Positions 1-22,915 of a DNA stretch of 64,000 nt are shown in pieces. The notes under the pieces are model-generated. The model was not told the origin of the DNA and made no database searches. It worked only from the letters and a program-made list of their open reading frames with translations. Position 1 is the stretch's first letter. Every line of letters begins with the position of its first letter. This DNA comes from Okamejei kenojei (Eukaryota): assembly GCA_035221665.1 (NCBI GenBank), contig CM069154.1, positions 5,580,001-5,644,000 on the forward strand, given 5' to 3'. Both the position numbers and the translations under genes were made by a program.

Positions 1-829
1 CATTAACTCTCGTTCTCTCTCCACAGATGCTGCCCAACCCGTTGAGTATTTCATCTTGTGCAGTTTGTGCGGCTCAGTGTAAAGTCCATATCAGTCATCG
101 CATTTTTGTAGTTTTTTTTTTAATTTTATTTTCTTTAAATTTTATTTTATTAAAAGTAAGTACAGGAATATGGCACCAAGGTGCCTAATATATATTGACG
201 TTACATTTTATGTACAATCTTCTTATTATTATTCTTTTTAATAATGAAAAAGAAAAAGAGAGAAATAGATAATAAAAAGATAGAAACATGTTGATATATA
301 GTGTGTGAGAAAGAAAAAAGTGTGAAAGAAGAAAGTTGAGAAAGAAAAAGAAAAAAGAAAGAGAAAGAGTAGAAGTAAGAGATTAAGGGAGATCGTTATC
401 TATATTCATGACCATCCCTCTCCCAATCCTAAAACAGTTCGCTTCTACCATTTTGTTGCACCATATGCTTTCCAAAAAATCGACAAATGGAGACCAACTC
501 GTTAAAAATTGGTCTGATTTATCTATTAGGAGGAATCGCATTTCCTCAAGATGTGCAGTGTCCAACATGTTTGAAATCCACATTTTAAGCATTAGTACAG
601 CTGTATTTTTCCAAAAGTTAAGTATAAACGTTTTTTTTGCCGTTATTAACCGATAATTAAAAAATAAAATCCGGTGGCGCTAATGAAGCCCTAGAGGATA
701 GCGCCGCCAGCTCCGTAAAAAAATTGGAAAAAAACGGGGTTTTAAAAGACTTACCGGCTGTCTGCTACACACTGCCTTCCGTTTCTATACCGACTGTGCC
801 GAGTGACGTCATCAGCCGCGCGACTAACT

Positions 830-1916
830 ATGTCGACGCCACGGAGCCCTACCGACAAGAGTAAAACCTCGTTCAACCCGACAGAAAGCGGCAGAAGGCC
901 GAGGTGAAGCCTCGGATTCGAGTAGGACTAGCTCCATGGAAGATGTTTCCAAGAAACCAGGCACAAAAGCGGAAGGTGAGGATTTGAAAACTTTTATATC
1001 TCAACAGATGGCTATTTTAAAAGCTAGAATTAAAGAAGAAAATGAAAGGTATAAAGGAAGAATTAAAGGAAGTAATATGTCAAAATAAACAATCAGATGG
1101 ATCAGATGAAAAATCAACTGAATGAATTTCAAAAAGAAACAATGTTAAAAATTGAAAAAAAGGTCAAGAAAGTATCGGAAGATTTGAAGAAAGAACTTAT
1201 TGAAATGCTTAAGGATAATGGAAAGTAAGATGGAGAAAAAACTTGAAAAGGTTAAAAAAGACTTTCAAAATAAGATTAATCCTATTGAGAATGTGCTGGA
1301 ACAACAGGCAGCTGGCATGAAGAACCTTGAACAGATAGCGGAGGCAAGTACTGAGTCTACAGCAAAGCTGATAACAGAACATGAACGTCTAATGACTTTG
1401 CTGACTAAAACAACAGAGAAATGTACTCAGCTAGAAGGCTATCAGAGAAGACAGAACTTGAGGATCGCAGGGATTCCTGAAGGTCGCGAGAAACACGAAG
1501 ATCTTCGAGAATTCACTGCTAAACTACTCCAAAATGTTTTATCTCTGGATGAAATGCCTTTATTAGCTTGTGCACATAGAGTCGGCAGACGTCAGACCAG
1601 TATAAATGCCCCCCCAAGACAAATGATCATAAAGCTACAATATGATTTTGTTCTGGAGGAGATTATGCGGAAAGCTGCGAGAAATAAGAATTTGACATTT
1701 GAAGGACAAAGGATCAGTATCTATCGAGATTACCCTCCAGAGGTTGCTAGAAAACGGAAGGCTTTTAATGAAGCCAAAAGCCTAATGAGGGGTGTAGAAA
1801 ATCTGAGATACGGTTTGAATTACCCAGCCATTCTAAGAGTTACTTTTAACACAGTGGAGCATTTCTTTAAAACCCCAGAAGCAGCCTTGGATTTCGCAAA
1901 GCAGTTCAAGCCTTGA
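830..1916 (+). pseudogene. L1 ORF1 (coiled-coil, RRM, CTD; Transposase_22-like); 5' part frameshifted, start approximate
   Basis: LEGYQRRQNLRIAGIPEG, AHRVG, PRQMIIKL, ISIYRDYPPEV, YPAILRVT are typical L1 ORF1p motifs. Confidence 0.88.
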
Positions 1917-2073
1917 AAAGTATTTACAAGCAAACATACTGACTTTTACTATTTTTAGAGACCCAACATGGAGTCTCAACACTACCAGCAGCCTTGGATT
2001 TCGCAAAGCAGCTCGAGTCTTGAAAAGTATCTACAAGCAAACATACTGACTTTTTCTACTTTTAGAGACCCAA
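1881..2073 (+). repeat. ~107-bp-period tandem duplication covering the ORF1 stop codon
   Basis: gcagccttggatttcgcaaagcag...ttagagacccaa starts at 1881 and again at 1988. Confidence 0.85.
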
Positions 2074-2891
2074 TACGGACACTCAACATTCGTGAGATTT
2101 CATATGATAATATGGGACTAGAAGTAATGGACAATGCCGTACGGAATGAAGAGGAAAAAACTGGATTGGAAGACGTTTTCTGGATACTGACAATTAGTCT
2201 TAACATATAACTAATATAAACAAATAACACACATATTAAAATCACAACGCGGTTTTATTATCAATATGATTATTATTAATCAAGATTGCTCACTTTTGCT
2301 AATTAATATCACTAATAATTAATAACTAATGTCTCGTTAATGAATGGAGTTAAATTTAGCTATGGATCTCATTTGGAGATCCTTTTTTTCTAATAATAAT
2401 TTTTATTTTGTACTTTAAATTATATTCTTTATGTTTAATACTGCTTAGATTTTCTAAGTTAATTTTAGATATAGATACCCTTATATGACGATTACCACCA
2501 CTTTTTTCATTCCTTTAATATTACACCCCAGTTAAAAATATATTGATGGAATAATAATTCCTCAAATCTAGGAGCTGGCCAAGTTAATAACAACAATGCC
2601 GGAAGTCCTTAGATGGATAGCCAAGTTAATATGGCTAACACAAACTACAAATACTTTATTTGTAGTTTTTTTCCTTCTTTACACAAACTATTAATTTCTT
2701 TAACTATTCTTTACTATCCTTTTATATCTATTGTATTTTTCAGTTTGAATGGAGTTACACATTGGACCAATGGAGATATATTCGTGAGGTATATAAAAGA
2801 GATTTAAAATTCATCTATTCGGTGTTCGGGTGTAAGGTTAGGTCTACTGCGCTGACCCTTAGACTCTATTGCAGATTCCCACAAACTTAAA

Positions 2892-5800
2892 ATGCAAGAC
2901 TTAAAAAGAAATACGGGGAATGAGGGATTAACATTTTGCAGTTGGAACGTTAAAGGTATTAATGAACCAATAAAGAGAGGAAAAATATTGACACATTTAA
3001 AGGCAATTAAAGCTGATGTAATTTATATTCAAGAAACCCACTTAAAAAAAGACGCTGAAAACAGGTTGAAAGCTAAATGGATAGACAAAATATATCATTC
3101 TTCTTTTACGCATAAATCAAGAGGTGTAGCAATATTATTTCGTAAAGGTACTTTATTTAAACATACATCAACTATATCTGATAAAGATGGTAGATACATT
3201 ATTGTGATAGGAGAAATAAACACAGAAAAAATGATTTTCGTTAATATATATGGACCAAATTTTGATAGCCCTTTGTTTTTTAAGAAAGTACTTAACAATA
3301 TTCCGGAATTAACACACATTATAATTTGATAATTGGAGGAGATTTTAATTGTACATTAGACCCTTACCTAGACAGATCTTCAAAACAAAGAAAAACTAAA
3401 TCACATTCTAGTGATTTATTAAATGCATATATTCAAACGACTAATATTAAAGATGTTTGGAGAATAGAAAACCCTACTGGTCGAGAATACTCTTTTTACT
3501 CACCAGTACATAAAACTTACTTAAGAATAGATTATTTTCTGGTAGATGCAAAGCTTATCTCACTTACTTACGAACCCAAATATCATAATATTATAATCTC
3601 AGATCATGCACCATTAACATTTAAAATTAAAATAAATGGTAAAACAGAAAATTGTGGACAATGGAAACTTAATCCACAAATTTTTAAAAAATAAAACCAC
3701 TCAGGAATATATTATAACTCAAATTAAGATTTTTTTGAAATAAATGATCAACCAGAAAATATCTCGCTCTTTATTATGGGAAACATTTAAAGCATATCTT
3801 CGGAGGAATTATGATTTCTTTCACAAGCATTCCATAATAAAAAGATTCGGAAGGAACAACAGGACTTGGAAAGGGAGATTAAACAATTAGATATACAGAA
3901 TGCAACAAAACCAGATATAATAATACATAATAAAATTGTAGCATTGAAATATAAATTAAATAAAATATATACTGATCAAGTTTTAAAATTTTATCAACAT
4001 ACTAAACAATTACAGTTTGAATTTGGAGACAAACCCCAAAAATTATTAGCTCGACAATTAAGGAAAATTGAAGCTGAAAAAAATTATACATAGGATTAAA
4101 TCACAAAATAGTGATTTATTAATACAACCTAAAGATATTAATGAAAGATTTATGCAATATTATAAAAAATCTATATACTGTTTAAAGCGACAGTAAATAA
4201 AACAGAAAATAGATGCCTTTTTAAAAATATGTAACTTAAAAGGTTTGGATTTACAAAATAAAGAACTATTAAAATGCTGATATATTTCAATAAAAGAAAT
4301 CCAAGAATCTATTAGATCATTAAAAAATGGTAAAACACCGGGACCGGATGGTATAGGCTCGGAATTTTATAAAATTTTTCATGATCATATGGTCCATATT
4401 TGAAATCATTATATGAACAGATATATACACAACAGAAATTACCAGATACGCTGAACGAGTCTATTATAACACTTATACCTAAAATAAATAAAGACTTGGA
4501 TGAACCAGGATCATATAGAGCAATAGCTCTATTAAATACGGATCAAAAGATTCTAACAAAAATATTAGCACAAAGATTAAGTACAGTTGTCAATGAATTA
4601 ATTCATCCCTATCAAACAGGATTTATATCTAAAAGATATTCCTCATATAATCTAAGACGGTTATTTAATATTATATATTCGAAAAGAAGTGATAAAAAAG
4701 ATTTAGTAGTTATCTCGCTGGATGCAGAAAAAGCTTTTGACCAAGTGGAATGGCCTTATCTATTTTCGGTGATGGAAGCTTTCAAGCTCGGTGAGAAGTT
4801 TACTACTTGGATTAAATTGTTATATGCAAACCCAACAGCTAGAATAACAACAAACCGTATGTTATCTACTAAATTTAGTTTATCTCGAGGTTGTAGACAA
4901 GGCTGTCCTCTAATCACCTTTATTGTTCGCGCTAGCAATAGAACCTCTCGCCCAAAGGGTGAGATTACATCCGGAAATACATGGATATGATACTAAAGAT
5001 ACTAAGAATAAAATCTCCTTATATGCGGGACGATGTATTACTTTATATCACTGAACCGGAAAATAAGTATCCGAAATTTGTTAAAACTAATAACGGAAAT
5101 TTGGATTAATCTCAGGATACAGTATCAATTGGAATAAAAGTGAACTTATGCCAATAACGATGAATAATTTACAGATATTACAACAATTTCCTTTCAAGAT
5201 AACAAATGAAAATATTTAAATATCTTGGCATTTTCGTTACAAAAAGATTTGATTCTTTATTTAAATCTAACTTCCCGTTATTACTGAACAAATTAAATAA
5301 GAATATTTTATACTGGAAAAGTTTACCTATTTCAATGTTAGGTAAAATCAACGCGATAAAAATGATTTTTCTCCCACAATTATTATATTTATTTCAATTA
5401 ATACCGATATATCTCCCTAAAAATTTTTTTTTAAAATTAGACTCCCTAGTTACTAACTTTATTTGGGATTATAAGAACCACAGAATAAATAAAAAACACT
5501 TATGTAAAGCTAAAATAAATGGGGGATTAGCATTACCAAATTTTATGTTTTATTACTGGGCAGTTAATATCAAAAACATGAATTTTTGGCTAGAAGAAAT
5601 AGATAACAAACCAAACTGGTTAAAAATGGAAAAAGAAGATTGTTCTCCATTTGAAATTAGTTCTATAATATTTGCTAATACTAACGTGACTAAGAAAATT
5701 TATAGTGAAAACCCGATAATAGAAAACGGAATCCGCATTTGGAAACAAATAAAGAAAACATTAAAATTAAAATCTATACCGTTAGGTCTTACCATTGCCA

Positions 5801-6700
5801 ATAATTTTACATTTAAACCTTCAACGATGGATATTACAATGGAAAAATAAAGGAATTTTAAACATAGGGGATCTTTATAAGGAAAGCTCTTTTCTTTCAT
5901 TTCAAGAGTTACAACAAACTTATGGACTACAAAATAATGAATATTTTAGATATTTACAAATCAGAAACTATATCTCTGCAAATACACAAGAACTTAGAAA
6001 TAGAAAGACTGACATTTTAGATGAATGCTTGAATAAACATCCAAATACAGAAAAAATGATATCATATATTTATAATATTTTATTGGAAAGTGATATCCCA
6101 TCAACGGAAACACATAGACATATTTGGGAAAATGAATTAGGTCAAATAATAAGCTCAGAAATATGGGACGAAAGCTTACAACACATACATCATTGTTCGT
6201 TTAAATGCTAAACATGTTCTTATACAGTTTAAAATTCTACATAGACTACATTATTCCAAATCTAAATTACATAATATATTTCCAAAATTATCGCCTATAT
6301 GTGATAAAATGTCAAATCTCAGAAGCAAATTTGTCACATTCATTCACTAATTGTATAAAGATTGTAGAATATTGGAACGAAATATTTAAGATAATTTCGA
6401 ATGTTAATAATATTACAATGATTTCTGATCCAAAGTTAATAATACTTGGAATACTTGAAACGGACCAACTAATTACAATGAACCAAAGAATTTTTATCGA
6501 CTATTGTCTAATAATTGGGAAAAAATTAATACTAAAATTTTGGAAAGGCCCTGCATCCCCAACAATTAAAATGTGGAATACAGAAATGTCTGAGACACTT
6601 CATTTGGAGAGATTGAGGGCTTGTCCTTATGGATAGGTTAGATCTCTTCAGAGAGATTTGGTCTCCATATATTAAATATTTACAGGGTCATAACGGTTCG
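2892..6700 (+). pseudogene. L1 ORF2 (APE endonuclease plus reverse transcriptase), many frameshifts
   Basis: SWNVKG, IQETH, IGGDFN, RIDYFL, SDHAP (EN). YRAIALLNTDQKIL, SLDAEKAFD, RGCRQGCP, YADD-like, KYLGI (RT). Confidence 0.92.
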
Positions 6701-8391
6701 GCGCGAAGACTTGACTGAGGCCTGAATATCTGAATGGATGAAGAAACATATATAATAAATCATGAATATATCTCCAAGGACGAATTAATGAATAATATTC
6801 CAATCTCCATCAAACTTTCAACCACTCTCTTTTCTATTTTCTATTCTTTATTTTTTCTATCCTTAATTATAAAAAAAGTATAGAAACACATTATATTAAA
6901 ATTTTTAATATTAATGCGAATATAGATATCATTACTTGTATGAAAATATTATTGATGTCCTGTATTTTTAATTACATAAAATTGTGTAGTTTCAACTATA
7001 TAATAATTTAGAAATATAAAAGTCAATAATAATACAAACACTCTTATTATTATGAAAATATAATGAATATTATAGAAGTTCGGTTAATATTGTGTATTAT
7101 ACAATTATAACATGGGGGACTTGTATTTTGAAATCAGAGGAAATATGGATATTATGAGTAGTATGAGTATATTGCTAATACTAGGAAGATACTATACACA
7201 CTCCCAATTATACAAAATAATTAACCTTGATATGTATTATTGATAATATTATAAATAATATAAACAGTATCAATTTATCATTAATATTATATAGTTTTTA
7301 TCGTTGTATAAGAGTGTATTTTGTAATTACTTTGTTTCTATAATAAAAAAATAAAAAAAATAAAATAAAATTAAAACAAAATAAAATAAAATTTGAGATG
7401 AGTTCAATTTATTCCCATCTGCCATTACTCCAAATACAATCATTTAAGTATTAGGTTCCATTTTTATCTTAAATAATTTTGTAAATATTTCAAAAATATC
7501 ACTCCAGAATTTATAACGTTTTATGCAGGAGACAAAAGAGTGTGTTATCGTTGCATTTTGGGATAGACATTTATCACAAATGGGGGAAGTATTTGGATAG
7601 AATTTATTCAATCTAGTTTTTGAGTAATATAATCTATGTAAAATTTTTATTCAATTTTATCTTACATTAATCGAACATTTATGTATATATATCAAATACG
7701 TTTCCCATGTTTCCTTCGTAATTTTTATCATTAATTCTCATTCCCACTCTTCTCTAAGTGCCTCTGTCGATGGTTTAAAATATTTTTAAAATACTATCAT
7801 ATAAATATGATATTAATTTCTGTGAGTCAGCCTTAATGTTCATTGCTTCTTCCAGTGGATCTAAAGTTATGTTTTTGATATCTTTGTATGTATTTTCTCA
7901 TGAAGTCGCAGATCTGAAGATATTTAAAATATTGGTTATTTTTCAGTTAAAATTTTAATTGGAATTGTTGGAATGATAACAGATTTCCCATTTCAGACAT
8001 ATCACCGATCCTTTTAATTCCCATTCTTTCCCATTGATTATATGTTTTATCAATAAGAGATGGTTTAAATGAAGGGTTATTCACTATTGGCATTAACAAA
8101 GATAGGTTTCTTAATTTTAAGGATAATTTTATTTGTTTCCAAATTCTTATTGTCTCATGTATAATTAGGTTATTCTTATATATTGTGTTGTTCAGTTTTA
8201 TCGGGGAGAAGAGGATCGCTCCTATATTACAAGGAGAACAGTCCTCTTTCTCCATTCTTATTCATTCTGTCTGTTGGGTAGAACTGTCCAAGCAGTAAAT
8301 TATTCTTAATATGCACTGCCCTATAATAATACAAAAAGTTCGGAAGATGACATATCAGTCATCTCATGAGGATTCTTCGTTCATAAGTTAT

Positions 8392-9023
8392 AGAAACATA
8401 GAAAATAGGTGCAGGAGGAGGCCTTTCGGCCCTTTGAGCCAGCATCGCCATTCATTGTGATCAGGGCTGAACGTCCCCAATCAATAACCTATGCCTGCCT
8501 TCTCCCCCATATCCCTTGATTCCACTAGCCCCGAGAGCTCCATCTAACTCTCTCTTAAATCCATCCAGTCATTTGGACTCCACTGCCCTCTGTGGCAGGG
8601 AATTCCACAAATTCACAACTCTCTGGGTGAAAAAGTTTTTTCTCACCTCAGTCTTAAATGGCCTCCCCTTTATTCTAAGACTGTGCCCCCTGGTTCTGGA
8701 CTCGCCCAACATTGGGAACATTTTTCCTTCATCGAGCTTGTCCAGTCCTTTTATAATTTTATATGTTTCTATAAGATCTCCACTCATCCTCCTAAACTCC
8801 AGTTTAGAGCCTAGTCTTTTCAATCTTTCCTCGTGTGACAGTCCCGCCATCCCATGGATCAATCTCGTGAACCTACGCTGCACTGCCTCAATCACAAGGA
8901 TGTTCTTCCGCAAATTAGGAGTCCAAAACTGGACACAACACTCCAGATGTGGTCTTACCAGACCCCAATACAACTGCAGAAGAACCTCTCCACTCCTGTA
9001 CTGAAATCCTCTTGCAATGAAGT
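8392..9023 (-). mobile_element. CR1 (HER1-like) LINE 3' fragment
   Basis: LVRPHLECCVQFW, ESRTRGHSLRIKGRPF, FFTQRVVNLWNSLPQ, followed by the family 3'UTR. Confidence 0.88.
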
Positions 9024-9786
9024 TCATGTGTTAGGGGAGGAATGAGGTCATTTTGTCTACTCCGCCATTCAATCATGGCTGATCTATCTCTCCCTCTCAA
9101 CCCCATTTTCTTCCCTTCTCCCCATATCGCTTGACACCCATACTAATCGAGAACCTGTGAATCCTAAAAATACCCAGTGACTTGGCCCTCATTGGAAACA
9201 CGGTAAAAGCTTTTCCCTGTACGTCGGTACAGAACGACAACAATAAACTGAGCTCATGAATCACCAAAGTTTGTGAGACACAAGAATTGCAGGTGCTGGA
9301 ATCTTGAGCAAAACACAAAGTGCTGGAGTAACTCAGCAGGTCCGGCAGCATCTGTGGAAGGAATGAACGGACGATGTATAGGGTTCGGACCCTTCCTTCA
9401 GATGATGTGTGTGTGTGGGTGTGACAGTAAACGGGCAGGGGGAGAGGGTGAGGGGGCGGTTCCACCCCTCCTGCCACAGTGAGGGGACGGCAGAGTTTCT
9501 GGTTCTGGAGCAATCGTCTTTGGGGAAATGAGCCGCCAGCAGCAGAACCGCCGGTCCCCGTTCACGAGGTCCCCCCCTCCCCGTCCCCGTCCCCCCCCCC
9601 CCCTCACACACACATACACACACACTGCTCCTTGGACAGTGGGCTCATGGACCCCTGTAAATGTGCTCCCCCCCCTTCACCCCGACCCCCGGCGATGTGG
9701 CACCGAGTCACCGTCAGGACCGAGGCCGGGAATTCCCAGGCTGGAATGTTCACATCTGGGAGAGTGAGGAGAGATCGTCAACGTAC

Positions 9787-10113
9787 CTTCAGAAACCTTC
9801 AATGAGATGGAGGTCCTTTCATTGCTTGAAAAGATTCCCTTTTTTACTATCACACACCAGTAGCGTCCTTCATCACTCTTCTCCAGGTTGTCGATGGTTA
9901 CTGAAAGTATCCGTTGTGTTTTGTTATCAGTCATCGATGTTCTCCCTTGTCGTGGGTCATCAGTAGAAACCACGGTCTTAGATAACCGGTAATAATAACC
10001 TTTACTCCATAGCTTACTGTTGTCACTGTATTCCTGACCATACCGACATTCCACAGTGACCGACTGCCCCAACTCTCTCGTCACCTCCTTGGGTCCAGTT
10101 ATTCCCCCTGACC
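9787..10113 (-). CDS. Ig V-set exon (copy A) of a CD300/pIgR/MDIR-like receptor
   Basis: 327-nt open exon, acceptor cccacag, donor gtacgt, phase 1/1. Encodes GPKEV...GQSVTVEC.Y...KLW.KG...GRTSMTDNKTQRILSVTIDNLEKSDEGRYWC...SLKVSE, typical of the CD300/pIgR family. Confidence 0.9.
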
Positions 10114-10370
10114 CTGTGGGCACATGAATGATGAAAGATCACACACACTGCAGCAACACAAGCTGAGGTTTAACAATAAAAAAACATGTCATTTTGTGCT
10201 GTTCAGACAGGTTCATGGTTTTGCATAGATCATGTGTAGCAAGGAACTGCAGGTGCTGGTTTACACCAAAGATTGACACAAAGTGCTGGAGTAACTCGGC
10301 AGGTAGCCAAAAATGCTGGAGAAACTCAGCTGGTGAGGGCGGAAGCATCTATGGAGTGAAGGAAATAGGC

Positions 10371-10398
10371 GACGTTTCGGGTCAAGACCCTTCTTCAG
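10371..10398 (-). ncRNA. Minimal type-I hammerhead ribozyme motif in a Penelope-derived repeat
   Basis: CTGAAGA-a-gggt(cttg)accc-GAAACGTC: CUGANGA box, stem II, GAAA, palindromic ACGT, GUC site. Confidence 0.65.
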
Positions 10399-10477
10399 AC
10401 TGATGGCAGATCAGGCAGCATCTCTGGAGTAAAAGGGTAGGTGGCCTTTTCGGGTCGGGACCATTCTTGATCTCCTG

Positions 10478-10700
10478 GTTGCCAACCCTGTCAACATCCC
10501 TTCCCATTCCCACACTGACCTTTCTGTCCTGGGCCTCCTCCATTGCCAGAGTGAGGCCACATGCAGGTTGGAGGAACCGCACCTCATATTACGCTCAGGT
10601 AGTTTACAACCCAACGGTTTGAACGTTGAATTCTCTAATTTTAACTATCTTCTACTAACCTGCGCCCTCCCCTTCCCCCTTGACCCCTTTCTCCACCCTG
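10478..10700 (+). mobile_element. Penelope-like element 3' fragment (GIY-YIG endonuclease C-terminus)
   Basis: Translates VANPVNIPSHSHTDLSVLGLLHCQSEATCRLEEPHLILRSGSLQPNGLNVEFSNF, matching the PLE endonuclease tail. Confidence 0.75.
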
Positions 10701-11021
10701 GTGGGTGAGGGGCTGGTTTTCCCCCACCTGGTTCTGGAGGTTCTGGTCCCGGAGCGATCGTCTTTCGGGAAATGAGCCTCAGCAGCAGAACCGCGGTAGC
10801 TGGGATCTTCCGTGGGGCTGGTGTCTGACATCCCCCCCCTATACTGCTCCTGGGACAGTGGGCCCAGTAAATGATGTATGCACCACCACCACCCCCCCCC
10901 CCCCCCCCCCGTCCACCTCGACCCCCGGGGATGTGGCACCAAGTCACCATCAGGACTGAGGCCGAAATTCCCTGGCTGGAATTTTCACATCTGGGAGCGT
11001 GAGGAGAGATCGTCAACGTAC

Positions 11022-11345
11022 CTTCAGAAACCTTCAATGAGATGGAGGTCGATTCATTGTGTGAATGTTTTCCCTTTGCTATCACACACCAGTAGCGTCC
11101 TTCATCACTCTTCTCCAGGTTGTTGATGGTTACTGAAATTATCTGTTGTGTTTTGTCATCAGTTATCGATGTTCTCCCTTGTCGTGGGTCATCAGTAGAA
11201 ACCACGGTAGAAGATGACTGGTAATCATCACCTTTACGCCACAGCTTGTTGTAATCACTATATTTCGAATCATACTGAAATTCCACAGTGACCGACTGCC
11301 CCAACTCTCCCCTCACCTCCTCGGGTTCAGTTACTCCCCTTGACC
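11022..11345 (-). CDS. Ig V-set exon (copy B), tandem paralogue lacking the first canonical Cys
   Basis: 324-nt open exon with the same splice sites as copy A. About 73% amino-acid identity to copy A by hand alignment. VTVEF in place of VTVEC. Confidence 0.85.
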
Positions 11346-11405
11346 CTGTGGGCACATTAATGATGAAAGATCACTCTCACTGCAGCAACACAAGCTGAGG
11401 TTTAA

Positions 11406-13211
11406 GTAAGTAAGTAAGTAAGTTTATTGGCCAAGTATTCACATACAAGGAATTTGCCTTGGTGCTCCGCCCACACGTAACAACATGACATACAGTGACA
11501 GTTACGAATCACTCAGAAAATACTAAACATTAATAATAATAAAACATTAATGACAAAACACCATTGATCAAGCATGTGAACCAACAAAATATCAGATCAA
11601 AGGGAGGCTACAGATTTTTGGCTGTTGAGTAGAGCAACTACTCGTGGATAAATACAGTTTTTATGTGGCAGTTTTGACAGCCTGGAGTCGCCTTCCAGAG
11701 GGAAGTGATTCAAAGAGTTTGTGGCCAGGGTGAGAGGGGTCAGAGATGATCTTGCCTGCTCGCTTCCTGGCCCTTGCAGTGTACAGTTCATCAATGGAGG
11801 GAAGGTTGCAGCCAATAACCTTCTCAGCTGATCGGACGATTCGTTGCAGCCTCCAGGTGTCGTGCTTGGTGGCTGAGCCAAACCAGACCATGATGGAGAA
11901 GGTGAGAACAGACTCTACGATGGCCGTGTAGAATTGGACCATCATTGCCTGTGGCAGATTGTGCTTCCTCAGCTGCCGCAGGAAGTACATCCTCTGTTGT
12001 GCCTTTTTGACTGTGGAGTTGATGGTCGCCCCACACTTAAGGTCCTTGGAGGTGATATTTCCCAGGAACTTAAACGACTCCACAGATGTGACTGTGGTGT
12101 TGTTGATGGTGAGTGGGGTGAGGGGAGGGGGAGCTCTCCTAAAGTCTACAATCAATTCCACTGTCTTAAGAGCATTGAGCTCTAGGTTGTTGCTACGGCA
12201 CCAGGATGCCAGCTGTGACACTTCCTGTCTGTAAGCAGATTCCTCCCCATCCTGGATCAGTCCAATCAGGGTTGTATCGTCCGCAAACTTGGGAAGTTTG
12301 GCAGAGGAGTCTGTAGAGGTGCAGTCATTGGTGCAGAGAGAGAGTAGAGGAGAGGGGAGAGTACGCAGCCTTGCGGTGCCTCTATGCTGAGCGTTTGCGG
12401 GTTCGAGGTGCTTTCCCAGCCTCACATGCTGCTTCCTGTCTGTCAGGAAGCTGGTGATCCACCGACAGAGGGGTTCAGGCACAGTCAACTTGGAAAGTTT
12501 GGAGTGTAGTAGCTCTGGCACAATGGTGTTGAATGCAGAGCTAAAATCAACAAACAGGATCCTCGCATAGGTCCCCTGGTGGTCTAGGATGAAGTGCAGG
12601 CCCAGGTTGACTGCATCATCCACAGATCTATTGGCCCGATATGCAAATTGCAGAGGGTCCAATAGATCTGTTTGTGATATTTTTCAACTTGGCCAGCACA
12701 TGCCTTTCGAGTGTCTTCATGACTACAGAGGTCAGTGTGACAGGCCTGTAGTCATTAAGACAAGTAATCCTTGCCTTTTTGGGTGCAGTGACAATAGTGG
12801 AGACTTTGAAGCAGGCAGGGACAGTACATGTTTGCAGGGACTGGTTTAAAATGTCTGTGTAGACCGGTGCCAGCTGTTTGGCACAGAGCTTATGAGTCGA
12901 GGGGGAAACATTGTCAAGTCCTGGAGATTTCCGGCTTTTTTGTCCTCTGAAATGCCTCTCCTCCTCCTCTATTTTTATTGTTGATATTTGATAAGTGATG
13001 TTTTGCAGCACAGAGGGTATGGGTGATTTGGTGTGAAGTGGTGATTGGAGGGGGGTGGGCGTAGAAGGGCCCAGTCTTTGTGAGTGGGTGTGAAGTGACA
13101 GTATTTTCATACTGGAGTCTTGCCTTAAGTAGGTGTGAAGTGGTGAATGGGAAGGAGAGGATGCCGGGTCCATTCTTTGTAGACTGGGGTCTGGCTGGGT
13201 TGGTTGGTTGG
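11406..13211 (-). mobile_element. Rex1/Babar-type LINE, 5'-truncated, in the intron upstream of V exon B
   Basis: DPLQFAYRANRSVDDAV, ILFVDFSSAFNTI, KFADDTT. (gtaa)n tail. ttaa duplicated at 11402-11405 and 13212-13215. Empty site visible in the paralogue at 10165-10178. Confidence 0.9.
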
Positions 13212-13624
13212 TTAACAATAAAAAACATGTAATTTGTGCTGTTCAGACAGCTTCATGGTTTCGCAAAGATCATGTGCAGCAAGGAACTGCAGGTGCTGGT
13301 TTACACCAAAGATAGACACAAAGAGCTGGAGTAACTCAGCGGGACAGGCAGCATCTCTGAAGAAACCGACGGGTTTCAATCTCACTACAATAGTGTTCAA
13401 TCTCACTACAACCCACATCCCCATTGAACTAGTAGAAACAAGGAACTGCAGATGCTGGTTAATACACAAAAGGACACAAAGTGCTGGAGTAACTCAATGG
13501 GTCAGGAACTATCTCTGGAGAAAGTGGATAGGTTACGATTCATAGAAATATATAACCATAGAAAATAGGCGCAGAAGTAGGCAATTCGGCCATTCGAGCC
13601 AGCAGTGCCATTCAATATGATTTT

Positions 13625-14215
13625 CAATCAAAGACTTTATTGTCATTCAAAAATACACCAACAACTTCAAGTTGGAATGAAATTTCGTTGCATCTGGCTC
13701 ACCGTGCAACATAAAATAACAAAAGGATAAAATATATAAAAAGATCAAATAGATAAAAAGATAAAATAGATAATAGTGGCGGCACATTATATGGAATTCA
13801 AGAGTCTGATGGCTCGGGGGAAGAAGCTGTTGCAGAACCTGGCCGTTCACTCCTTATACTGCGATACCTTTTGCCCGAGGGCAGCAGAGTGAACAGTCCA
13901 TGATGGAGATGTGTGGGGTCTTTTATAATGCTGTTGACCTTGGACAAGCAACGTTTGCGCGCAATGTCCCGGATTGAAGGAAGAGAAGTCCCGATGATTT
14001 TTTCAGCCATCCTCACCACTCTCTGCACGGACTTCCAGTCGGAGGCTTTGCAGTCCCCAAACCAGACAGATGCAGCTGGTCAAAATGCTCTCTATGGTGC
14101 CCCTGTAGAAAGTGGTGAGGACGGGATGGGGAGGTGAGCTCTTCTCATCCGGCGCAGAAAGTGCAAACGCTGCTGCGCTCTCTTTACTAGTGATGCGATG
14201 TTTTGTGACAAGGTC
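13625..14215 (-). mobile_element. Rex/Babar LINE 3' fragment
   Basis: LTTFYRGTIESILTSCI, QRVVRMAEKIIGTSLPSI, HGLFTLLPSGKRYRSI. Confidence 0.8.
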
Positions 14216-16133
14216 AGACTGTTCATGGCTGATCATCCAAAATCAGTACCCTCTTCTGCTTGCTCCCCCTATCCCATGATTCCATTAGCCCTAAGAACTA
14301 TATCTAACTCTCTCTTGAATACATCCAGTGAATTGGCCTCCACTGCCCTCTGTGGCAAAGAATTCTACAGATTCACAACTCTGGGTGAAAAGGTTTTTCC
14401 TCATCTGGCCTACCCCTTATTCAGGTCTCAACCCAAAACGTCACCTATCGATGTTCTCCAGAGATGCTGCCTGACCTGCTGCCTTACTCCAGCACTTTGT
14501 GCTTTACTAAAGCTGAATAGCCAGCTGCCTGTGGTGTCAGTGGTGACTCAGCAGGTCAGGCAGTATCTGTGGAGAACATGGACATGTGACGTTTCAAGTC
14601 ATGACCATGAGATACTCCCTGACCTACTGAGTTACGTCAGCACTTTGTGCCCCATTGAACTAAACTTCCCGGCGTGTGGAGGAAGCTGGATCTGCCACTG
14701 ATGTTTCAAACTCCACGTCCACCTGGAATAATTATGATGTGTCTTTTTCACACAATGGACCAAACTGATCTAAGCTACATTTTAATATAAAATTGCATAC
14801 ATGTAAGGCTACAAGTAACAAACAAAATGTGTAGATCACCTCTGAAAAGCACATAGTTACAATACCACATGTTTTTGTGACTGTGAAATGATTTAAAAAA
14901 AAGTAATTTAATTAAATAGATCCTGGAAAACCAATAACCATTGGTGAAAAACCAATCCAGGCATTACATTTTGGGCTTCAGCCCCATCCTACCCTTTGGG
15001 CTTCTACCCCATCCTAACTTAGTTGCGTGTGTTAGTTGTCTGTGCATGATGTGTGTGTGGGAGGGAAGGAGAGAAGGGAGGGAGAGGGCCCGTGGCGGGA
15101 GCTGAGGCCGGGATCCGGGCGGATGGGTGTGAGCTGAGGCCGATGTTTGTAAACGTCGCTCCAACCCCCGGCCCGGCCCTCCCTGTATTGTTCACCGCGT
15201 CTCCCCGGGGAGAGAGAGGGGTGGAGCTGGGGCTGTGTGGGAAGCACGGCGACTGGAGGGGCGGGAGCGCTGCCGTGAGCAAACGACGCACCTCCCCCTC
15301 TCCCCCTTCTCCCTCTTCTCCGTTTCCCCTCCCCGTCTACCCCTTTCTTCCCCCTCCACCTCTCTACTCTATCTCCGCCCCTCTCTCCCCCCCTCCACCC
15401 GGGGTAGATCTACCTGAGCCGAGAGTAGATAACTCTGGCGTGGGGCCCCCTTACTCGCGGGGCCCAATTGGGAGCAATCGGTCCAAACGGCTTAAGGCCG
15501 GCCCCGGGTACATGGATAGGACAGGTTTGTAGGGACATGGACCTAACATGGACAGGTGGGACTAGTGTTGCTGAGACATGTTGGCCGGTGTGGGCAAGTT
15601 GGGCTGAGGGCCTGTTTCTACACTGTATCACTATGACTCTAACACATGTGAAACTCTGCAGATTCAGGATCTGGGATGGAGACACATGATCAGATCAGTC
15701 CAGGTCCGCTCACAAGCCACAAGACAAATGCCTTGAAGGAGAACTCAGAGGCTGGGGAAAGCACAGTGTGGAGAACAGCTCGAGCAGCAGAGTCTGTAAA
15801 GCAGCTGTTTTTTCTCAGGAGAGATTACCTCAACTTCTCCAAATGCTAAATTGGACAGTCACTCTGGTGCTTCCTCATTTGAGATGCCCACCTGTTCCTC
15901 TGGCTGGCTCTCACAGGTTTTTTCTTTGAATGTGCTAAGATTTAGATTCAACATTTCCCATTGCAGTGCGTGGAGGGAGTGCCGTGTGTCTTTGATGGAC
16001 ACTAAATGCTGGAGTAACTCAGCGGGTCAGGCGGCATCTCTGGAGAGAAGCAATGGGTGACATTTTGGGTTGAGACCCTTCTTCAGACCAACAGTCAGCG
16101 AGGGAGGAAGTCAAGAGATATGCAAGTGGTAAA

Positions 16134-16330
16134 GCATTTAGCTGATCTGCTGTCAAGTCACTGAGAAAGTTCACCTGGAGATAGTTTGCACCAGAATAGT
16201 GGAGCAAACTCTCTGGTCCAGGGCAAGAGTTACCCCAACACCCAAGATCAACAAGGCCAGCTGTCGGGTCATTTTCTACAGGGAGCTAGCTGTGTGCAAT
16301 TTGGCTGCACACAACACGACAACAACCGCT
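16134..16330 (+). mobile_element. Degenerate Deu-domain SINE (SacSINE1-like) in intron 1
   Basis: gggagctagctgtgtgcaatttggctgc resembles the recalled DeuSINE core; paralogous to 44161-44400. Confidence 0.5.
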
Positions 16331-16476
16331 GATGGAAGTCTCTACAGGAACTAATGAGTGTTGAGCACTTCATCATCAGCTCCCCACACAGTACAGAGAG
16401 GTCTGTGTTTACAAATAATTCAAAGCACTGGTAAATAATTCTAAAGGACAGAGCATTTTGTAAAACAACGATTTAC

Positions 16477-16573
16477 CTGATGTGAGACCAACAGCGACAA
16501 GAACCAACAGAGCGACTGTTCCCCTGGATCTGGGCCGTTTCTGGTGGGTGAATTCTCCCTGTCCCACCGCCAT
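16477..16573 (-). CDS. Signal-peptide (leader) exon of the minus-strand CD300/MDIR-like gene
   Basis: gacATGG Kozak context. MAVGQGEFTHQKRPRSRGTVALLVLVAVGLTS(G): basic n-region then hydrophobic h-region. Phase-1 donor G|gtaaat is in frame with both V exons. Confidence 0.8.
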
Positions 16574-16599
16574 GTCTCGGCTGCGTTGGATCGGTTTGG

Positions 16600-16720
16600 T
16601 TCCTGCACTGCGTTTGAGTTGTCCTCTTCCTCATTCACAACAGAAGTCAAACAGTCAATGTCCGTTTACTCAGGAAATGACTTTGCAGTGGTTCGAGACT
16701 AAGTTGGTGACTCACTTGCC
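16600..16720 (-). promoter_or_regulatory. Putative TATA-less myeloid-type promoter
   Basis: PU.1/ETS-like aatgaggaagagg (16623-16635), caggaaat (~16671) and AP-1 TGACTCA (16708-16714), directly upstream of the leader ATG. Confidence 0.45.
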
Positions 16721-18440
16721 ACCTCCCCCAGCCTCCTCACCACGAACAATGCACCTATCAGGAGTGGGCTGCAATGCTCTCCTGTTGCCTGGATTGGAGC
16801 ATCTCCTCGAAGCTCTGCTTCATCCTGGTGACGTTTGCCCGCTTGTCAGGCACTCTGTCCACCACCGCAAACATTCCCTTGCCCACCACCTCAACCCCCT
16901 CCCTCAAATGCGGGAACACTGTGTCTGAACATGTATGGGATTAGGAGGCAGAGATCAGCCATGCTTGAATGGCGGAGGAGACTCGATGGGCCGAATGGCC
17001 ATATTCTACTCCTGGAACGTGGAACTTGTGAACTGTTTGCCCACCTCAAAATGCGTATCACTAATTTGTCCAGCCTTCCTCAGCTTCTCATGTTTTGAAA
17101 CGTTACCCGGGAGAAATAGGGCACCAACGGAACGGAAATGAGGAAACATTTTTTTCACACAGAGTGTTGTGAGTCTCTGGAATTCTCTGCTTCAGAGAGC
17201 GGTGGATGCCGGTTCTCTGGATACTTTCAAGAGAGAGCTAGATAGGGCTCTTAAAGATAGCGGGCTCTTCCAGATGACTCTCTCACGCACTTACTATCCT
17301 ATCTAACTCTCTCTATTCTTCTTATTCTTCTTCTTCTTAAAATATAAAATAAGGAGTGGTACAGGAAATGTATTATGTTATTTTTGTCTTATATCATTGT
17401 AATGTACATTACTTCTAATAAAGACATTAAAAAAAAAAGATAGCAGAGTCAGGGGATATGGGGAGAAGGCAGGAACGGGATACTGATTGTGGATGATCAG
17501 CCATGATCACATTGAATAGTGGTGCTGGCTCGAAGGGCTGAATGGCCTACTCCTGCACCTATTGTCTGTTGTCTATTGTAAAATGCGATCAGATAAGTCA
17601 ACTCATGTCACCAGATAAACTCCTTGAAAGACAATTCAAATATTTGAGCATCGGAGACCAGGTAAAGCTTAGTTTGAAGATGTGATTCATAAAATCATGG
17701 AGTGATACAGCACGGAAATAGCTTGCCTATGCCGATCAAGATGCCCCATGTACGCTAGTGCCTCTTTAGTTTAGTTTCGTTTAGAGATACAATACGGAAA
17801 CAGGCCCTCTGGCCCACCGTGTCCGCACCATCCAGTGATCCCCGCACAGCAGCACAAATGTTTACATTTACACCAACCCAATTAACCTACAAACCTGTAC
17901 ATCTTTGGAGTGTGGGAGGAAACTGAAGTTCTCGGAGAAAACTATGTACAGACAAGCACCTGAAGCCGGGATTGAACCCGGGTATCTGCCGCTGTTATGC
18001 AATGTAAGGCAGCAACTCTACAGCTGCGCCACCATAAAAACCAGGCCTGCATTTGACCCCTGTCCCTACAAACCTTGCCTATCCACATACCATGTCCTAA
18101 TGCTTTTAAATGTTGTTAATAGTACCCGTCCCCACTACCTCCTCTGGACATGCTCCTTCCATGTACCCATCAGCTTCTGTGAGATAACATTGTTGAGGTA
18201 GGATTAGGGTTGTGTGAGGGAGAAGACAAAGGAGATTGCATATACTAGAATCTGGAACAATAGGCAGAACACCTGAAAAACTCAACGGGTCAAGCAGCAT
18301 CTGTGGAGGCAAAAAGTGCATGTTTGTATTCCGGCCGAGACACTACTTCCTGACTGAGGTTGAAAACTGGATGTTTACCAATATATGGCAGAACAAAGAG
18401 GAGATGGGTCAAACGTGGGTAAGTGGAACTAGTGGACTAG

Positions 18441-18745
18441 GGTGGCACGGTGGCGCAGTGGTAGAGTTGCTGCCTTACTGCGTTTACAGTCGGGTTCGAT
18501 CCCGACTACGGGTGCTGTCTGTATGGAGTTTGTACGTTCTCCCCGTGACCGCCTGGGTTTTCTCCAAGATCTTCAGTTTCCTCCCACACTCCAAAGCCAT
18601 ATAGGTTAGTAGGTTAGTTGGCTTGGTATAAGTGTAAATAGTCCCTAGTGCGTGTAGGATGTTAATGCGGTGGGATCACTGTTCGGTGCGAACTCGGTGA
18701 ACTGAAGGGCCAGTTTCCACGCTGTATCTCTAAACTAAACTAAAC
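18441..18745 (+). mobile_element. tRNA-derived HE1/V-SINE-like SINE (representative; further copies near 17770, 20040, 23120, 25420, 31450, 34135, 37215, 38985, 40085, 40520, 50425, 53730)
   Basis: A box tggcgcagtgg, B box ggttcgatcc, conserved core gagtttgtacgttctccccgtg, (ctaaa)n tail. Confidence 0.8.
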
Positions 18746-18793
18746 TAGTTTAGGTTTAAGATAGAAATGCAGATGCTGGAAAAATCGATGGTA

Positions 18794-19237
18794 GACAAGA
18801 ATAAACTAATAAACAAAGATAACAGTGCTCCAGCCAGCCTCGCAATGGGCCGTCGAACTAGAGTCTCTAACCTGCCTAAATGGAAATAACCCTGAAACAA
18901 AACACTCAGGTCAGCCCTTATCCATCCCAATTCAATATTAATCGACAAATGTAGGTAATAATACACAAAGTTTTATGCCATGTGGCCAGGCCTCCTGCAG
19001 CTCACACCAGCAACCTGCTCACGAGTCAGGGTCGACGAAGAGAGAGAGATTTCTGGGAGCTTCTGGTATTTAAGGTTCCGATGAGTCACCCATCACCTGA
19101 CACAGCTTGGCCAATCGGGTACAGGAGCCCTTAACACCTTGATTCCGACTTCCAGCCACGGGGCCTGCACTCAGGAGAGAAACAAAAGAGTTAAGTACAT
19201 AGCATTCACCAGAGGGGGGGGGGGGAAGTACCTAACA
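18794..19237 (-). mobile_element. Truncated copy of the solo LTR (poly(A)/U5 end missing)
   Basis: Matches 32691-33148; ends ...cctaaca followed by acaag. Confidence 0.8.
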
Positions 19238-19242
19238 ACAAG

Positions 19243-19418
19243 TATAAGGAAGGTAGGTTTTGCAGAGATCATCAGAATCGATGACTGCTTCCAAATGATG
19301 TCCATTAATACTTTCAAACATGCTGATAAAATAAAACAAACGGAAAGTGTTTACATAAAGTATTTCACAAATTCAGGCCAAACCAATGCTCTACGAAGAT
19401 GATATCAATAGGTCTTGA
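19243..19418 (+). pseudogene. Orphan 3' end of a receptor paralogue: last 10 nt of the TM exon plus the cytoplasmic exon (19377-19418)
   Basis: tataaggaag|gtaggt ... ttcag|AKPMLYEDDINRS*, identical to 33154-33331. Confidence 0.55.
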
Positions 19419-19465
19419 CAAGATGTTTGTGTGCAGAATGAACTGAAGTGCTTGATGTAAATGTT

Positions 19466-19837
19466 GTAGAGCCCTGTCTAGCTCTCTCTTGAAAGCATCC
19501 AGAGCACCTGCCTCCACCGCCCTCTGAGGCAGAAAATTCCACAGACTCACCACTCTCTGTGAGAAAAAGTGTTTCCTCGTTTCCGTTCTAAATGGCTTAC
19601 TCCTTATTCTTAAACTGTGGCTCCTGGTTCTGGACTCCCCCAACATCGGGAACATGTTTCCTGCCTCTAGCGTATCCAAGCCCTTAACAATCTTATATGT
19701 TTCAATGAGATATCTTCTCATCCTTCTCAACTCCAGAGTGTACAAGTCCAGCTGCTCCATTCTCTCAGCATATGACAATCCCGCCATCCCGGGAATTAAC
19801 CTTGTAAACCTACGCTGCATTCCCTCAATAGCAAGAA
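19466..19837 (-). mobile_element. CR1 fragment (paralogue at ~33380-33752)
   Basis: QRRFTRLIPGMAGLSYAERMEQL...ESRTRSHSLRIR. Confidence 0.85.
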
Positions 19838-21679
19838 TCTATTCACTCAGTAAAGGTGCCATTTAAACAATGTTGCTAGCCTTCATATTTTGCTGAGCAG
19901 TTTTCAAGTCAAGTCTGGCTTATTCTTATATGCACGTATGGTGAGGTGCAGGTACAATGAAAATCACGCTTGTGGCAACATCACAGGCACATACACGTGG
20001 ACACACAAAAATATAAATGATACATAGGGTGTACGTGTGTACAGCAGTGGAGTTGCTGCCTTCATTTCAGCGCCAGAGACGCGATTTTGATCCTGACTAC
20101 GGATGCTGTCTGTACGGAGTTTGCATGTTCTCCCCATGACCAATTTTCTCTGAGATCTTTGGTTTCTTCCCACACACCAAAGACGTGCAGGTTTGTAGGT
20201 TAATTGCCTTCGGTAAAACTGTAAATTGACCCTAGTGTGTGCAGGATAGTGCTGGTGTGCGGGTGGGATCGCTGGTTGGCGTGAACTATGTGGGCCAAAG
20301 GTCCTGTTTCTATGCTGTATCTCTAAACTAAACTAAACTCAACTAAGACGTCCAATTCCACTGAAGAAAAGGTCACCATATCTCTCAAGCTAATTGGCAC
20401 TTTACTCAAAGCAATGGGTTCCACCTGACAATCTTGTTCTCTTTATTCACTGCATGTGAAAACAGCTGAGACTTAATTTTATTTCCTTGCCTCAATATAA
20501 CTTGAATAATCTTATGAATGAATGATGAATGAATGAATAGGTTTATATGAATGAATAGGTTTATTGGCCAAGTATTCACATACAAGGAATTTGCCTTGGT
20601 GCTCCGTTCGCAAGTACAATATGACATACAGTGACATTAGGAATGACACCTAAAACATTAAACATTAACAATAAAATATACTTTTATAACAGAACCAATG
20701 ACAATTACACTATCTCCAATTACAAGATTGATATCAACAGTACTCAAAACAAATATAGTGCAAGGTATATTCTTCTCATAACTTTTTTTATGCGCTGGAA
20801 CTGAATCCATGTCGAGGACATTTGGTCGATTTTGTTTTGTTAAATGCACGCGTCAAGAGTGCTTGATTGTCATATTTACCGACAAGGGAGCAATATAACG
20901 CTTTGTTTCAGGAGCACAACGAGTCTGCAGCTTTAGAGAGTTATACAGCACGAAACGCACCCTTCAGCCCAACTTGTCCATGTCGACCAAGATGCCCCAT
21001 CTACTCTAGTTCCTCCTGCCAGCGTTTGGTCCATTTCCTTCTAAACCAGTCCTATTCATGTAACTGTCCAAAAGCCTTTAAAATGTTTTTGTAGCACCTG
21101 CCTCAACTACCTCATCAGTTAGCTCATTCCATACACCCACAACTCACTGTGTAAAAACATGATGCCCCTCAGGATCCTATTAAATCTTTTCGCTTTCACC
21201 TGAAGCCTTGTCCCCGAGTCTTGATTCCCCTTTGCTAGGTAAGAGACTTGTTTCCCTTGTTACCCTTGTTTCCCTTTCCCGAACTCTGTTTGAAGAAAGG
21301 TCTCGACTCAAAACATCACCTATTCCTTTACTCTAGAGATGCTGCCTGACCCGATGAGTAACTCTAGGTTTTTGTGTCTATCTTCGGTTTAAACGAGCAA
21401 CACATATCCTATCTATTCCCCTCATTGTGCTTGTAAACACAATGCACACAGTTAATATATAATGTACAAAAATTAATTAGTTAATAAGTCCAATAAGGGC
21501 AAAAAATAACTGATGTCTTTAGTGCAACCAAAGACTGTCCATACTTGATAGTTGAGGTTAGTGTGCAGTGTTCAAAAGCCTAATTTTTGCTGCTGAGAAG
21601 CTGTTCTTGAACCTGGAGGTCACCGTTTTCAGGCTCCTCAACCTTCTTCCCAATGGCAGGAGTGAAACGAGAGCGTGGT

Positions 21680-22553
21680 CAGAGTGTCATAGAGCCATAG
21701 AGTGATACAGTGTGGAAACAGGCCCTTCGGCCCAACTTGCCCACACCCGCCAACAATGTCCCAGGTACACTAGTCCCACTTGCCTGTGCTTGGTCCATAT
21801 CTCTCCAAATGTGTCCTATCCATGTATCTGTCCAACTGTTTCCTAAATGATGGGATAGTCCCAGCCTCAATTACCTCCTCTGGCATCTTGTTCCATACAC
21901 CCACCACCCTTTGTGTGGAAAAAGATACCCCTCAGATTCCTATTAAATCTTTTCCCCTTCACCTTGAACCTATGTCCTCTGGTCCTCGATTCCCCTACTC
22001 TGGGCAAAAGACTTTGTACATCCACCCAACCTATTCCTTTCATGATCTTATACACCTCTTTCAGATCACCCCTTATCCTCCTGGGCTCGATGGAATAGAG
22101 ATCCTGCCTAATCAACCTCACCCTATAGCTCACACACTCTAGTCCTGGCAACATCCTCGTAAATCTTTTCGGAACCCTTTCAAGCTTGACAGTATCTTTC
22201 CTATATCATGGTGCCCAGAACTGAACACAATATTCTAAATGCGGTCTCACCATCATCTTAGACAACAGCAACATGACCTCCGAACTTCTATTCTCAATAT
22301 TCTGACTGATGAAGGCCAAAGTGCCAAAAGTCTTTTTGACCGTTTTATCTACCTGTGACTCAACCTTCAAGGAATCGTGCACCTGTACTCCTAGATCCCT
22401 CTGCTCTACAACACTACCCAGAGGCCTGCCATTTACTGTGTAGGTCCTGGCCTTGTTTGACGTCCCAAAATGCAACACCTCACACTTCTCTGTATTAAAT
22501 TCCATCAACCAATGCTCCGCCCACCAGGCCAATCGATCCAGATCCGGCTGCAA
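21680..22553 (-). mobile_element. CR1 3' fragment (paralogue at ~35779-36652)
   Basis: DLDRLAWWAEHWLMEFNTEKCEVLHFG, VRPHLEYCVQFW, ESRTRGHRFKVKG. Confidence 0.88.
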
Positions 22554-22800
22554 TCAAAGGGGTTATGGGGAGAAGGCAGGAGAATGGGGTTAGGAGGGAG
22601 AGATAGATGAGCCATGAATGAATGGCAGGGTAGACTTGATGGGTCGTATCACTTATGACCTGATGAGCGTATTACCAAATATTCCTCATTCGTGCCAGGT
22701 TTGTGACTCTTTTCACCATTTTCATTACTCTATAAACATTAATTTATGTTTGAAATGTGCTGAGAAGATTTGAAATTCGAGAGTTAACCTGCAAGATCAT

Positions 22801-22915
22801 TGTGGTTTCATACACAAGGTCTTGCTGACCTCTTCCTCATTTATGTTCCTCGTAATGTTTCTACTTAAACGTTATTTTGCAATGAAGAGGAAGAGCTGAG
22901 TGACTTATGAGTGAC
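22801..22915. promoter_or_regulatory. Putative myeloid enhancer motif cluster (duplicated at ~36898-37012)
   Basis: RUNX TGTGGTTT, two PU.1-like GAGGAAG, C/EBP half-site TTGCAAT and two tgagtgac AP-1-like sites within 115 bp. Confidence 0.4.

Follow-up and report, generated by a model that had tools for sequence, protein, structure and literature searches.

The skate Okamejei kenojei carries, on a contig designated C24, two neighbouring V-set immunoglobulin (Ig) exons that differ at many amino acids and at very few silent positions. The question raised by this pair is whether the excess of amino-acid changes reflects diversifying selection on an innate receptor, or whether the history of the exons suffices to explain it. 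The stretch analysed, hereafter the window, is 64,000 nucleotides long; positions are those of the window unless preceded by the name of the contig.

One gene with two V domains

The two exons are read from the minus strand. The membrane-distal exon, D1 (11022-11345), is 324 nt long and matches the Pfam V-set profile with an E-value of 6.7e-13; the membrane-proximal exon, D2 (9787-10113), is 327 nt long (E 1.9e-12). Each has a CCCACAG acceptor, a donor with GAAG before and GT after the splice point, phases 1-1 and an open frame. A leader exon encoding the signal peptide (16477-16573, minus strand, 97 nt, phase 1) was located by tblastn with skate homologues (88-97% identity over 33 aa), and its ATG and GT donor can be read directly. 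A Thr/Ser stalk exon (C24:5579451-5579609) and an exon for an uncharged transmembrane (TM) segment (around C24:5578712 and 5578800) lie just left of the window. Leader, D1, D2, stalk and TM exons form one gene, and D1 and D2 are two domains of a single CD300/pIgR-like (MDIR-type) receptor and not a pair of genes, a correction to the preliminary description.

The two exons stand in duplicated units. Unit A (9668-10303) comprises the D2 exon with its intron flanks, and unit B (10904-13343) the D1 exon with its flanks; in a self-BLAST, 9668-10173 is 88.5% identical to 10904-11405, and 10170-10303 is 91.8% identical to 13212-13343. Between about 11406 and 13211, unit B is split by an insertion that has junction repeats and a reverse-transcriptase-like open reading frame (11664-12683), and which we take, from its motifs, to be LINE-like. 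Other repeated sequences occur in the window. Two copies of an AT-rich element (1188-6953 and 45148-49986), about 83% identical and in opposite orientation, have ORF1- and reverse-transcriptase-like frames and, judging from these motifs, are presumably LINE-like as well; one of them is located in the intron that separates D2 from the stalk exon. The inverted copies of another element (28127-30494 and 58834-61222) are diverged (64%), with a reverse-transcriptase-like frame at 28094-28921, and we presume that this element is possibly DIRS-like. A direct duplication of about 5.6 kb, the copies of which are nearly identical (18794-24376 and 32691-38473, 96-97%), consists mostly of repeats. Upstream of the leader, a non-coding-looking segment (16761-16919, minus strand) matches at 74% the C-terminal tail of the RefSeq model P0002, which suggests that the tail of this model derives from repeat or intergenic sequence.

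The whole gene is contained in an inverted duplication of 25.6 kb (C24:5574354-5599887, including window positions 1-19887, and C24:5334907-5360380), the arms of which are 96.5% identical overall, with 262 mismatches and 485 gap openings. The copy studied here runs into a gap of 500 N where the duplicate carries its last exon, with the motifs VIYTTV and VVYATI. On the strength of this 96.5% identity, our copy would also have an inhibitory (ITIM) tail, and the host gene is likely to be an inhibitory receptor of a paired activating/inhibitory family. As assembled, the TM exon of this copy contains two 1-base insertions and the first tail exon is disrupted too. In the comparison with the duplicate, the density of gaps, counted as gap bases in each 2 kb, rises from ~20 to ~160 on approaching the 500-N gap, an excess of indels that suggests unpolished long-read sequence. 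Since the damage to the TM and first tail exons is located where this density climbs steeply, it is likely to consist of assembly errors, from contig-end reads. Contigs of two DNA runs, with paralogues mixed in, lack single bases at positions 10178 and 10192. In contigs of another run, X6, the kind of which is unspecified, parts of both exons are covered with 1-9 differing letters each, while the unique intron bins beside the exons are without coverage and no D1-D2 joint occurs among the matches listed. The X6 coverage is paralogue-like and says nothing firm about the expression of this copy.

Differences between the two exons

A recount of the differences gave exactly the figures of the preliminary description, namely 29 amino-acid-changing codons, 3 purely synonymous ones and one codon indel, with no stop or frameshift. 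With the indel placed at D2 codon 90, the 40 nucleotide differences divide into an Sd of 5 and an Nd of 35, and the NG86 dN/dS is 2.31 (Fisher one-sided p 0.052, kappa 1), rising to 2.64 at kappa 2 (one-sided p 0.023). The pairwise ratio is indeed above 1, as had been supposed, with a p value that is borderline for the pair alone. Over 10 gap placements, the counts vary between 29-31 changing and 3-4 synonymous codons, and dN/dS between 1.45 and 2.45. Taken on its own, the pair is borderline evidence of dN exceeding dS, and it is sensitive to where the gap is placed.

The intron flanks duplicated together with D1 and D2 provide a yardstick, differing at 21 of 290 sites (7.2%). The pS of the exons is 6.0-6.6%, and their pN, at 14.3-14.8%, is about twice the intron divergence (p 0.007), so that the substitutions are not spread at the even rate of the introns. 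The distribution of the changes was examined over three loop regions on the minus strand. In D2, these are the BC-loop region (codons 23-32, 10016-10045, with limits from DSSP of the structural model; D1 equivalent 11248-11277), the C-C' loop region (codons 37-45, 9977-10003; D1 equivalent 11209-11235) and the FG-loop region (codons 89-99, 9815-9847), which is of the GIFSS type in D2 and of the GKHSH type in D1 (11050-11079). The changes had been described as concentrated in the N-terminus and in the loops. For the loops, this is true of the amino-acid changes, with a pN of 0.337 in the loops and 0.076 elsewhere (p 2e-6), but the silent changes are mostly in the loops as well (4 of 5, giving a pS of 0.184 against 0.016 in the rest). 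With a pN of 0.076, the framework of D1 and D2 has diverged at the same rate as the introns, meaning that there is no clear purifying selection on it.

A cluster of paired receptors

A search of the genome with the V domain returned 51 matches, all of them within the interval 5.13-6.29 Mb of contig C24. The near clade comprises 24 units, 22 of which were aligned after one degenerate and one split unit had been dropped; 15 of the 22 are open and 7 contain stops or frameshifts. A second set, of about 25 more distant CD300/pIgR-like V exons (C24:5.77-6.29 Mb), is 31-39% identical to D2; the C-C' cysteines are retained in most of its translated exons, and here too the loops look variable.

In the stretches of C24 that were fetched, which cover part of the region, six TM exons are of the uncharged, ITIM type and seven of an Arg-TM type (VLRW or VSRW). 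The uncharged type is linked to tyrosine-motif tails and the Arg-TM type, in relatives, to a short tail; both are also present in shark relatives. D1-D2 ectodomains whose D2 is 86-94% identical to that of the window join Arg-TM exons at C24:5194965, 5468635 and 5495188, or ITIM-type TM exons at C24:5356064, at 5396484 and in the gene studied here. As far as sequence can tell, this combination of near-identical ectodomains and opposite tail types is a paired-receptor layout. An arginine in the TM segment recruits an ITAM adaptor, as in LILRA, FCAR and NKp46, and by analogy the Arg-TM members of the skate cluster would signal through such an adaptor.

Each gene of the cluster carries between one and three V units in tandem. 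In Rhinoraja (P0001, P0002), Narcine (P0003/P0024) and Leucoraja (P0020), the number of tandem V domains is three to five; these domains are most alike within species, and those of Rhinoraja constitute a single clade with 100/99 support. That tandem domains are most alike within species was interpreted as meaning that changes in exon number recur across rays and skates. Rearranging V segments of recombining antigen-receptor loci were also considered and were rejected on exon anatomy, since each V exon is complete: it codes for an entire domain, G strand included, and ends in a splice donor.

Mosaic V units

The V units of the cluster are mosaics, in which unrelated FG loops are found within flanks that are only about 1% apart. 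Between the D2 of the window and the unit at C24:5650682, 18 of 36 sites differ over codons 87-100, with 6 gap bases in addition, as opposed to 2/123 in the core, 0/25 at the exon end and 1/101 in the 3' intron. The pattern is reversed with the unit at C24:5131018, which differs from D2 at 1/42 sites in the FG segment and at 12/69 in the BC-CC' segment. A PHI-like test that included the intron flanks gave p 0.0007 at four of five window sizes and 0.011 at the fifth. Restricted to the exons, the same test did not reach significance, and in a two-tree breakpoint scan the AICc improved at none of 17 positions; as significance arose only when the intron flanks were added, the exon-only tests appear to be short of power. 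GENECONV-like run tests on 187 pairs gave uncorrected p values no lower than the permutation floor of 0.0025, which would not remain significant after correction. Gene conversion is the likely cause of the mosaic pattern, with recurrent mutation explaining some of the single sites.

Some of the exchanged segments are old. Indeed, the loop types VRWNF, GIFSS and GKHS also occur in proteins of Amblyraja or Leucoraja. The contrast between loops and framework is therefore due in part to segment exchange and to old loop types common to other skate genera.

Fold, cysteines and the putative contact face

An AlphaFold2 model of D2, built on 38 sequences, has a pLDDT of 95.4, and the predicted structure resembles most closely that of mouse CD300lf in a Foldseek search (TM 0.87-0.90, ~34% identity). 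By sequence, the closest solved structures in the PDB are pIgR and CD300lf, with pIgR on top. Among named proteins, the nearest are skate entries called 'pIgR-like' and 'CMRF35-like' (76-82% identity), followed by ray and shark relatives at ~50-65%.

The cysteines of the family are distributed unevenly. D2 has both B-F cysteines, as do 14 of the 15 open domains of the near clade; in the D1 of the window, codon 22 (11278-11280) encodes Phe instead of the B-strand Cys, a change common to the closest duplicate and to one other unit. The C-C' cysteines are absent from all 15 open domains of this clade. Since D1 has neither the B-strand Cys nor the C-C' cysteines, no disulfide is expected in it. 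Phe22 may reflect decay of this copy or simply tolerance; a Cys-to-Phe change at the same bond is described for one primate CD300A (PMC12447643). The C-C' cysteines are kept in stingray and manta domains, in three shark proteins and in the distant clade of the C24 cluster; Narcine and Heptranchias keep one of the two, and Pristis and Scyliorhinus canicula neither. Across these proteins, the C-C' disulfide looks to have been lost repeatedly. In CD300lf, the site bound by both phospholipid and norovirus lies between the CC' and CDR3 loops, with Cys36-Cys44 as its floor (PMC6166816). If the skate domains behave like CD300lf, the ligand would be contacted by the C-C'/FG front face.

Selection across the paralogues

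GY94 codon models were fitted to the 15 open exons over 100 codons, leaving out 6-8 FG-loop codons that could not be aligned. Under these conditions the M0 omega of the whole domain is 2.7-3.0, significantly different from 1 (LRT 15.7-19.1, p ~2e-5), and it exceeds 1 in all four model variants (plain, multi-hit, site-rate variation, and both). A tree-free count, which is biased towards synonymous paths, gave 81 nonsynonymous to 16 synonymous changes, a ratio of 1.8, for which p is 0.016 with kappa set to 2 and 0.052 with kappa set to 1. When singletons were removed, the count was 46:7 (p 0.018). The D1 clade alone (14:1, p 0.07) is suggestive, not significant. The diversifying selection that the preliminary description had deduced from D1 and D2 is thus borne out by the 15 intact paralogues, and not by the pair alone.

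Other exons of the same genes serve as controls. The ratio is 0.31 in the leader (7 copies), 0.37 in the ITIM-type TM exon (4 copies) and 0.38 in the tail (3 copies), the exceptions among non-V exons being the stalk (1.34, 4 copies) and the Arg-TM exon (1.36, 5 copies). Across the V exons, dN/dS is 1.8-3.0, as against values below 1 in the signalling ITIM-TM and tail exons.

Possible explanations

We consider it probable, at about 0.72, that pathogen-driven diversifying selection and gene conversion together shape the V domains of this CD300/pIgR-like paired family of skates. Microbes would bind the inhibitory members or mimic their ligands, and loop variants that escape or recognise microbes would be favoured. 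Short conversion tracts would shuttle loops among D1, D2 and the inhibitory and activating genes, with the core staying alike within species. The driver of the diversification would be a ligand of microbial or parasite origin. The cluster points to the loops that could be mutated in searches for ligands.

A more elaborate scheme, which is possible but which we hold only tentatively, regards the cluster as a combinatorial germline repertoire built from a CD300-type lipid sensor through C-C' loss, FG cassette exchange and swappable tails. The C-C' disulfide would have been dropped, freeing a Tyr-rich loop. A few old FG-loop 'cassettes' (GIFSS, GKHSH/GNDS, VRWNF, IPSYF), some of them common to skate genera, would be recombined, through short stretches of conversion, with BC and C-C' loops that vary independently and with either tail, and the outcome would be CDR-like diversity obtained without somatic rearrangement.

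Could the same pattern arise with no ongoing selection? Old loop types would have been retained while conversion erased framework differences, and relaxed constraint together with mosaic history would inflate dN/dS. We regard this as unlikely, although several observations agree with it. Mosaicism is present, the framework of the D1/D2 pair diverges at the intron rate, and silent differences cluster in the loops, their variant density over the 15 units being 0.44 in loops and 0.13 in the rest. The N:S ratio of these units is 1.74 in the loops and 1.80 in the rest, neither being significant alone; being the same in both, it shows that the excess is domain-wide and not loop-specific. Relative to the pooled intron flanks of the 15 units, the density of nonsynonymous changes is not higher over the whole domain (p 0.31), and only the loops stand above the introns (p 2e-8).

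The site models must be read with the mosaic structure in mind. Naive M1a/M2a and M7/M8 comparisons on the 15 exons have an LRT of ~68, with ~29% of sites at an omega near 9; the M1a/M2a LRT is 31.8 when site-rate variation and multi-hit changes are included and 32.1 with four block-specific trees. We simulated 52 neutral mosaics, with block-wise label swaps and rate variation, which represent one form of conversion. In 42 of them M1a/M2a was 'significant' (maximum LRT 56.9). The naive site LRTs are therefore not taken at face value and the list of 16 M8 sites is indicative only: site tests of the kind proposed in the preliminary description do give a signal, but its significance is of a kind that neutral mosaics can produce. 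Site-class dN/dS tests alone mislead on mosaic gene clusters. Mapped onto the predicted structure, 12 of the 16 sites fall in the BC, C-C' or FG region or on one of the C, C', F and G strands, and from the geometry of the Ig fold they would be exposed on one face. The whole-domain omega behaves differently from the site classes. Conversion carries silent and replacement changes together, so that an omega of about 1 is expected without selection, and the simulated mosaics had a mean of 1.08, a maximum of 2.28 and a maximum LRT of 8.0; under this one form of conversion, the observed signal (2.7-3.0) was reached in 0 of 52. The tree-free counts, moreover, are still above 1.

Another possibility, which we find quite improbable as a full explanation, is that the D1/D2 differences reflect a single old division of roles between the distal and the proximal domain, such as contact with the ligand as opposed to a spacer or dimer surface, predating the split of the skate genera. 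The differences G6E, K8E, Y39D, R67Q and R99S, as well as the FG-loop type, recur by class in Leucoraja and Amblyraja. In protein distances, to which no significance test was applied and on which all comparisons between genera rely, the N-terminus groups by D1/D2 class (0.08 from D1 to the D1 of other genera versus 0.22 to its own D2), and the core (codons 46-86) is 0.12 apart between the D1 and D2 of this genome and 0.17-0.20 from other genera. With a core alike within the genome and an N-terminus that follows class, part of the 29 differences represents old class divergence that persisted as the core became homogenised. Many others, however, are recent or private (e.g. codons 2, 11, 12, 26, 31 and 60), loop sequences differ among members of one class, and in single-V genes as well, and the Rhinoraja domains, forming their own clade, have no D1/D2 split. 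Old specialisation probably accounts for some of the differences counted in the pair, and is compatible with pathogen-driven selection and conversion acting on the family as a whole.

Finally, it is very unlikely that the pattern is partly noise from a decaying pseudogene or from a poorly polished or falsely duplicated assembly, because, for all the Cys22Phe change of D1, the frameshifted TM and first tail exons, the rise in gap density up to the 500-N gap at which the gene ends and the bases missing at 10178 and 10192 from DNA-run contigs with paralogues mixed in, decay and random errors give an omega of about 1 and not above, the excess persists without singletons, the V exons, splice sites, leader and stalk are all intact, the indels look like contig-end read errors and the family-level signal is independent of this copy.

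Comparison with known systems

In cartilaginous fish, innate paired receptors have hardly been characterised. Cannon et al., in 2006, are said to have described MDIRs with a variable number of domains and with charged-TM and ITIM forms. The C24 cluster fits the MDIRs of the clearnose skate as they are summarised in PMC3031540, a placement made by description. Like them, it is a skate multigene CD300/pIgR-like family in which activating and inhibitory forms, as predicted from their tails, stand side by side. No MDIR protein of Raja eglanteria was among the homologue matches, and no selection or conversion analysis of the skate MDIR family was found in the literature searched, which included few subscription papers.

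With CD300, the cluster has in common a CD300-like V fold, a Ser/Thr stalk and paired ITIM and charged-TM forms. It differs in that the Cys36-Cys44 floor of the CD300lf lipid pocket, as given in PMC6166816, is missing from 15 of 15 intact domains, that the short-tail form has an Arg in its TM segment where CD300C has a Glu, and that a gene of the cluster contains one to three tandem V units, and four in relatives. As the second disulfide is lacking, the cluster was not filed as CD300. The repeated loss of the C-C' disulfide would be a natural test of a shift of CD300-type receptors from lipid sensing to variable protein recognition. In primates, gene conversion between the ectodomains of CD300A and CD300C is described in PMC12447643.

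The likeness to pIgR and to the teleost pIgR-like proteins lies in the top sequence matches in the PDB, in the tandem V domains and in the 'pIgR-like' RefSeq names of relatives. Unlike pIgR, a single conserved Ig transporter, the skate genes form a large multigene cluster with variable loops and with ITIM-like tails, Arg-TM segments or short tails. The multicopy cluster, the variable loops and the ITIM-like or short tails do not match a true pIgR, a single-copy conserved gene with an Ig-binding D1 and a transcytosis tail.

An evolutionary parallel is offered by unrelated receptors, the CEACAM, KLR and PIR genes. PMC5112662 and PMC3210942 report that, in Xenopus and mammalian CEACAM and in KLR/PIR, genes of opposite signal exchange sequence by conversion ('merohomogenization') and that nonsynonymous changes build up on the CC'C''FG face. 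The general mechanism is already known for paired receptors; the lineage is little studied, and the arms-race pattern of CEACAM, CD300, PIR and KLR genes would extend to skates. The evolutionary pattern is the same, with one difference: in CEACAM, KLR and PIR, conversion makes the ligand-binding exons alike, whereas in the skate cluster it is the core that is alike within the species, and the distinct FG-loop types persist across genera.
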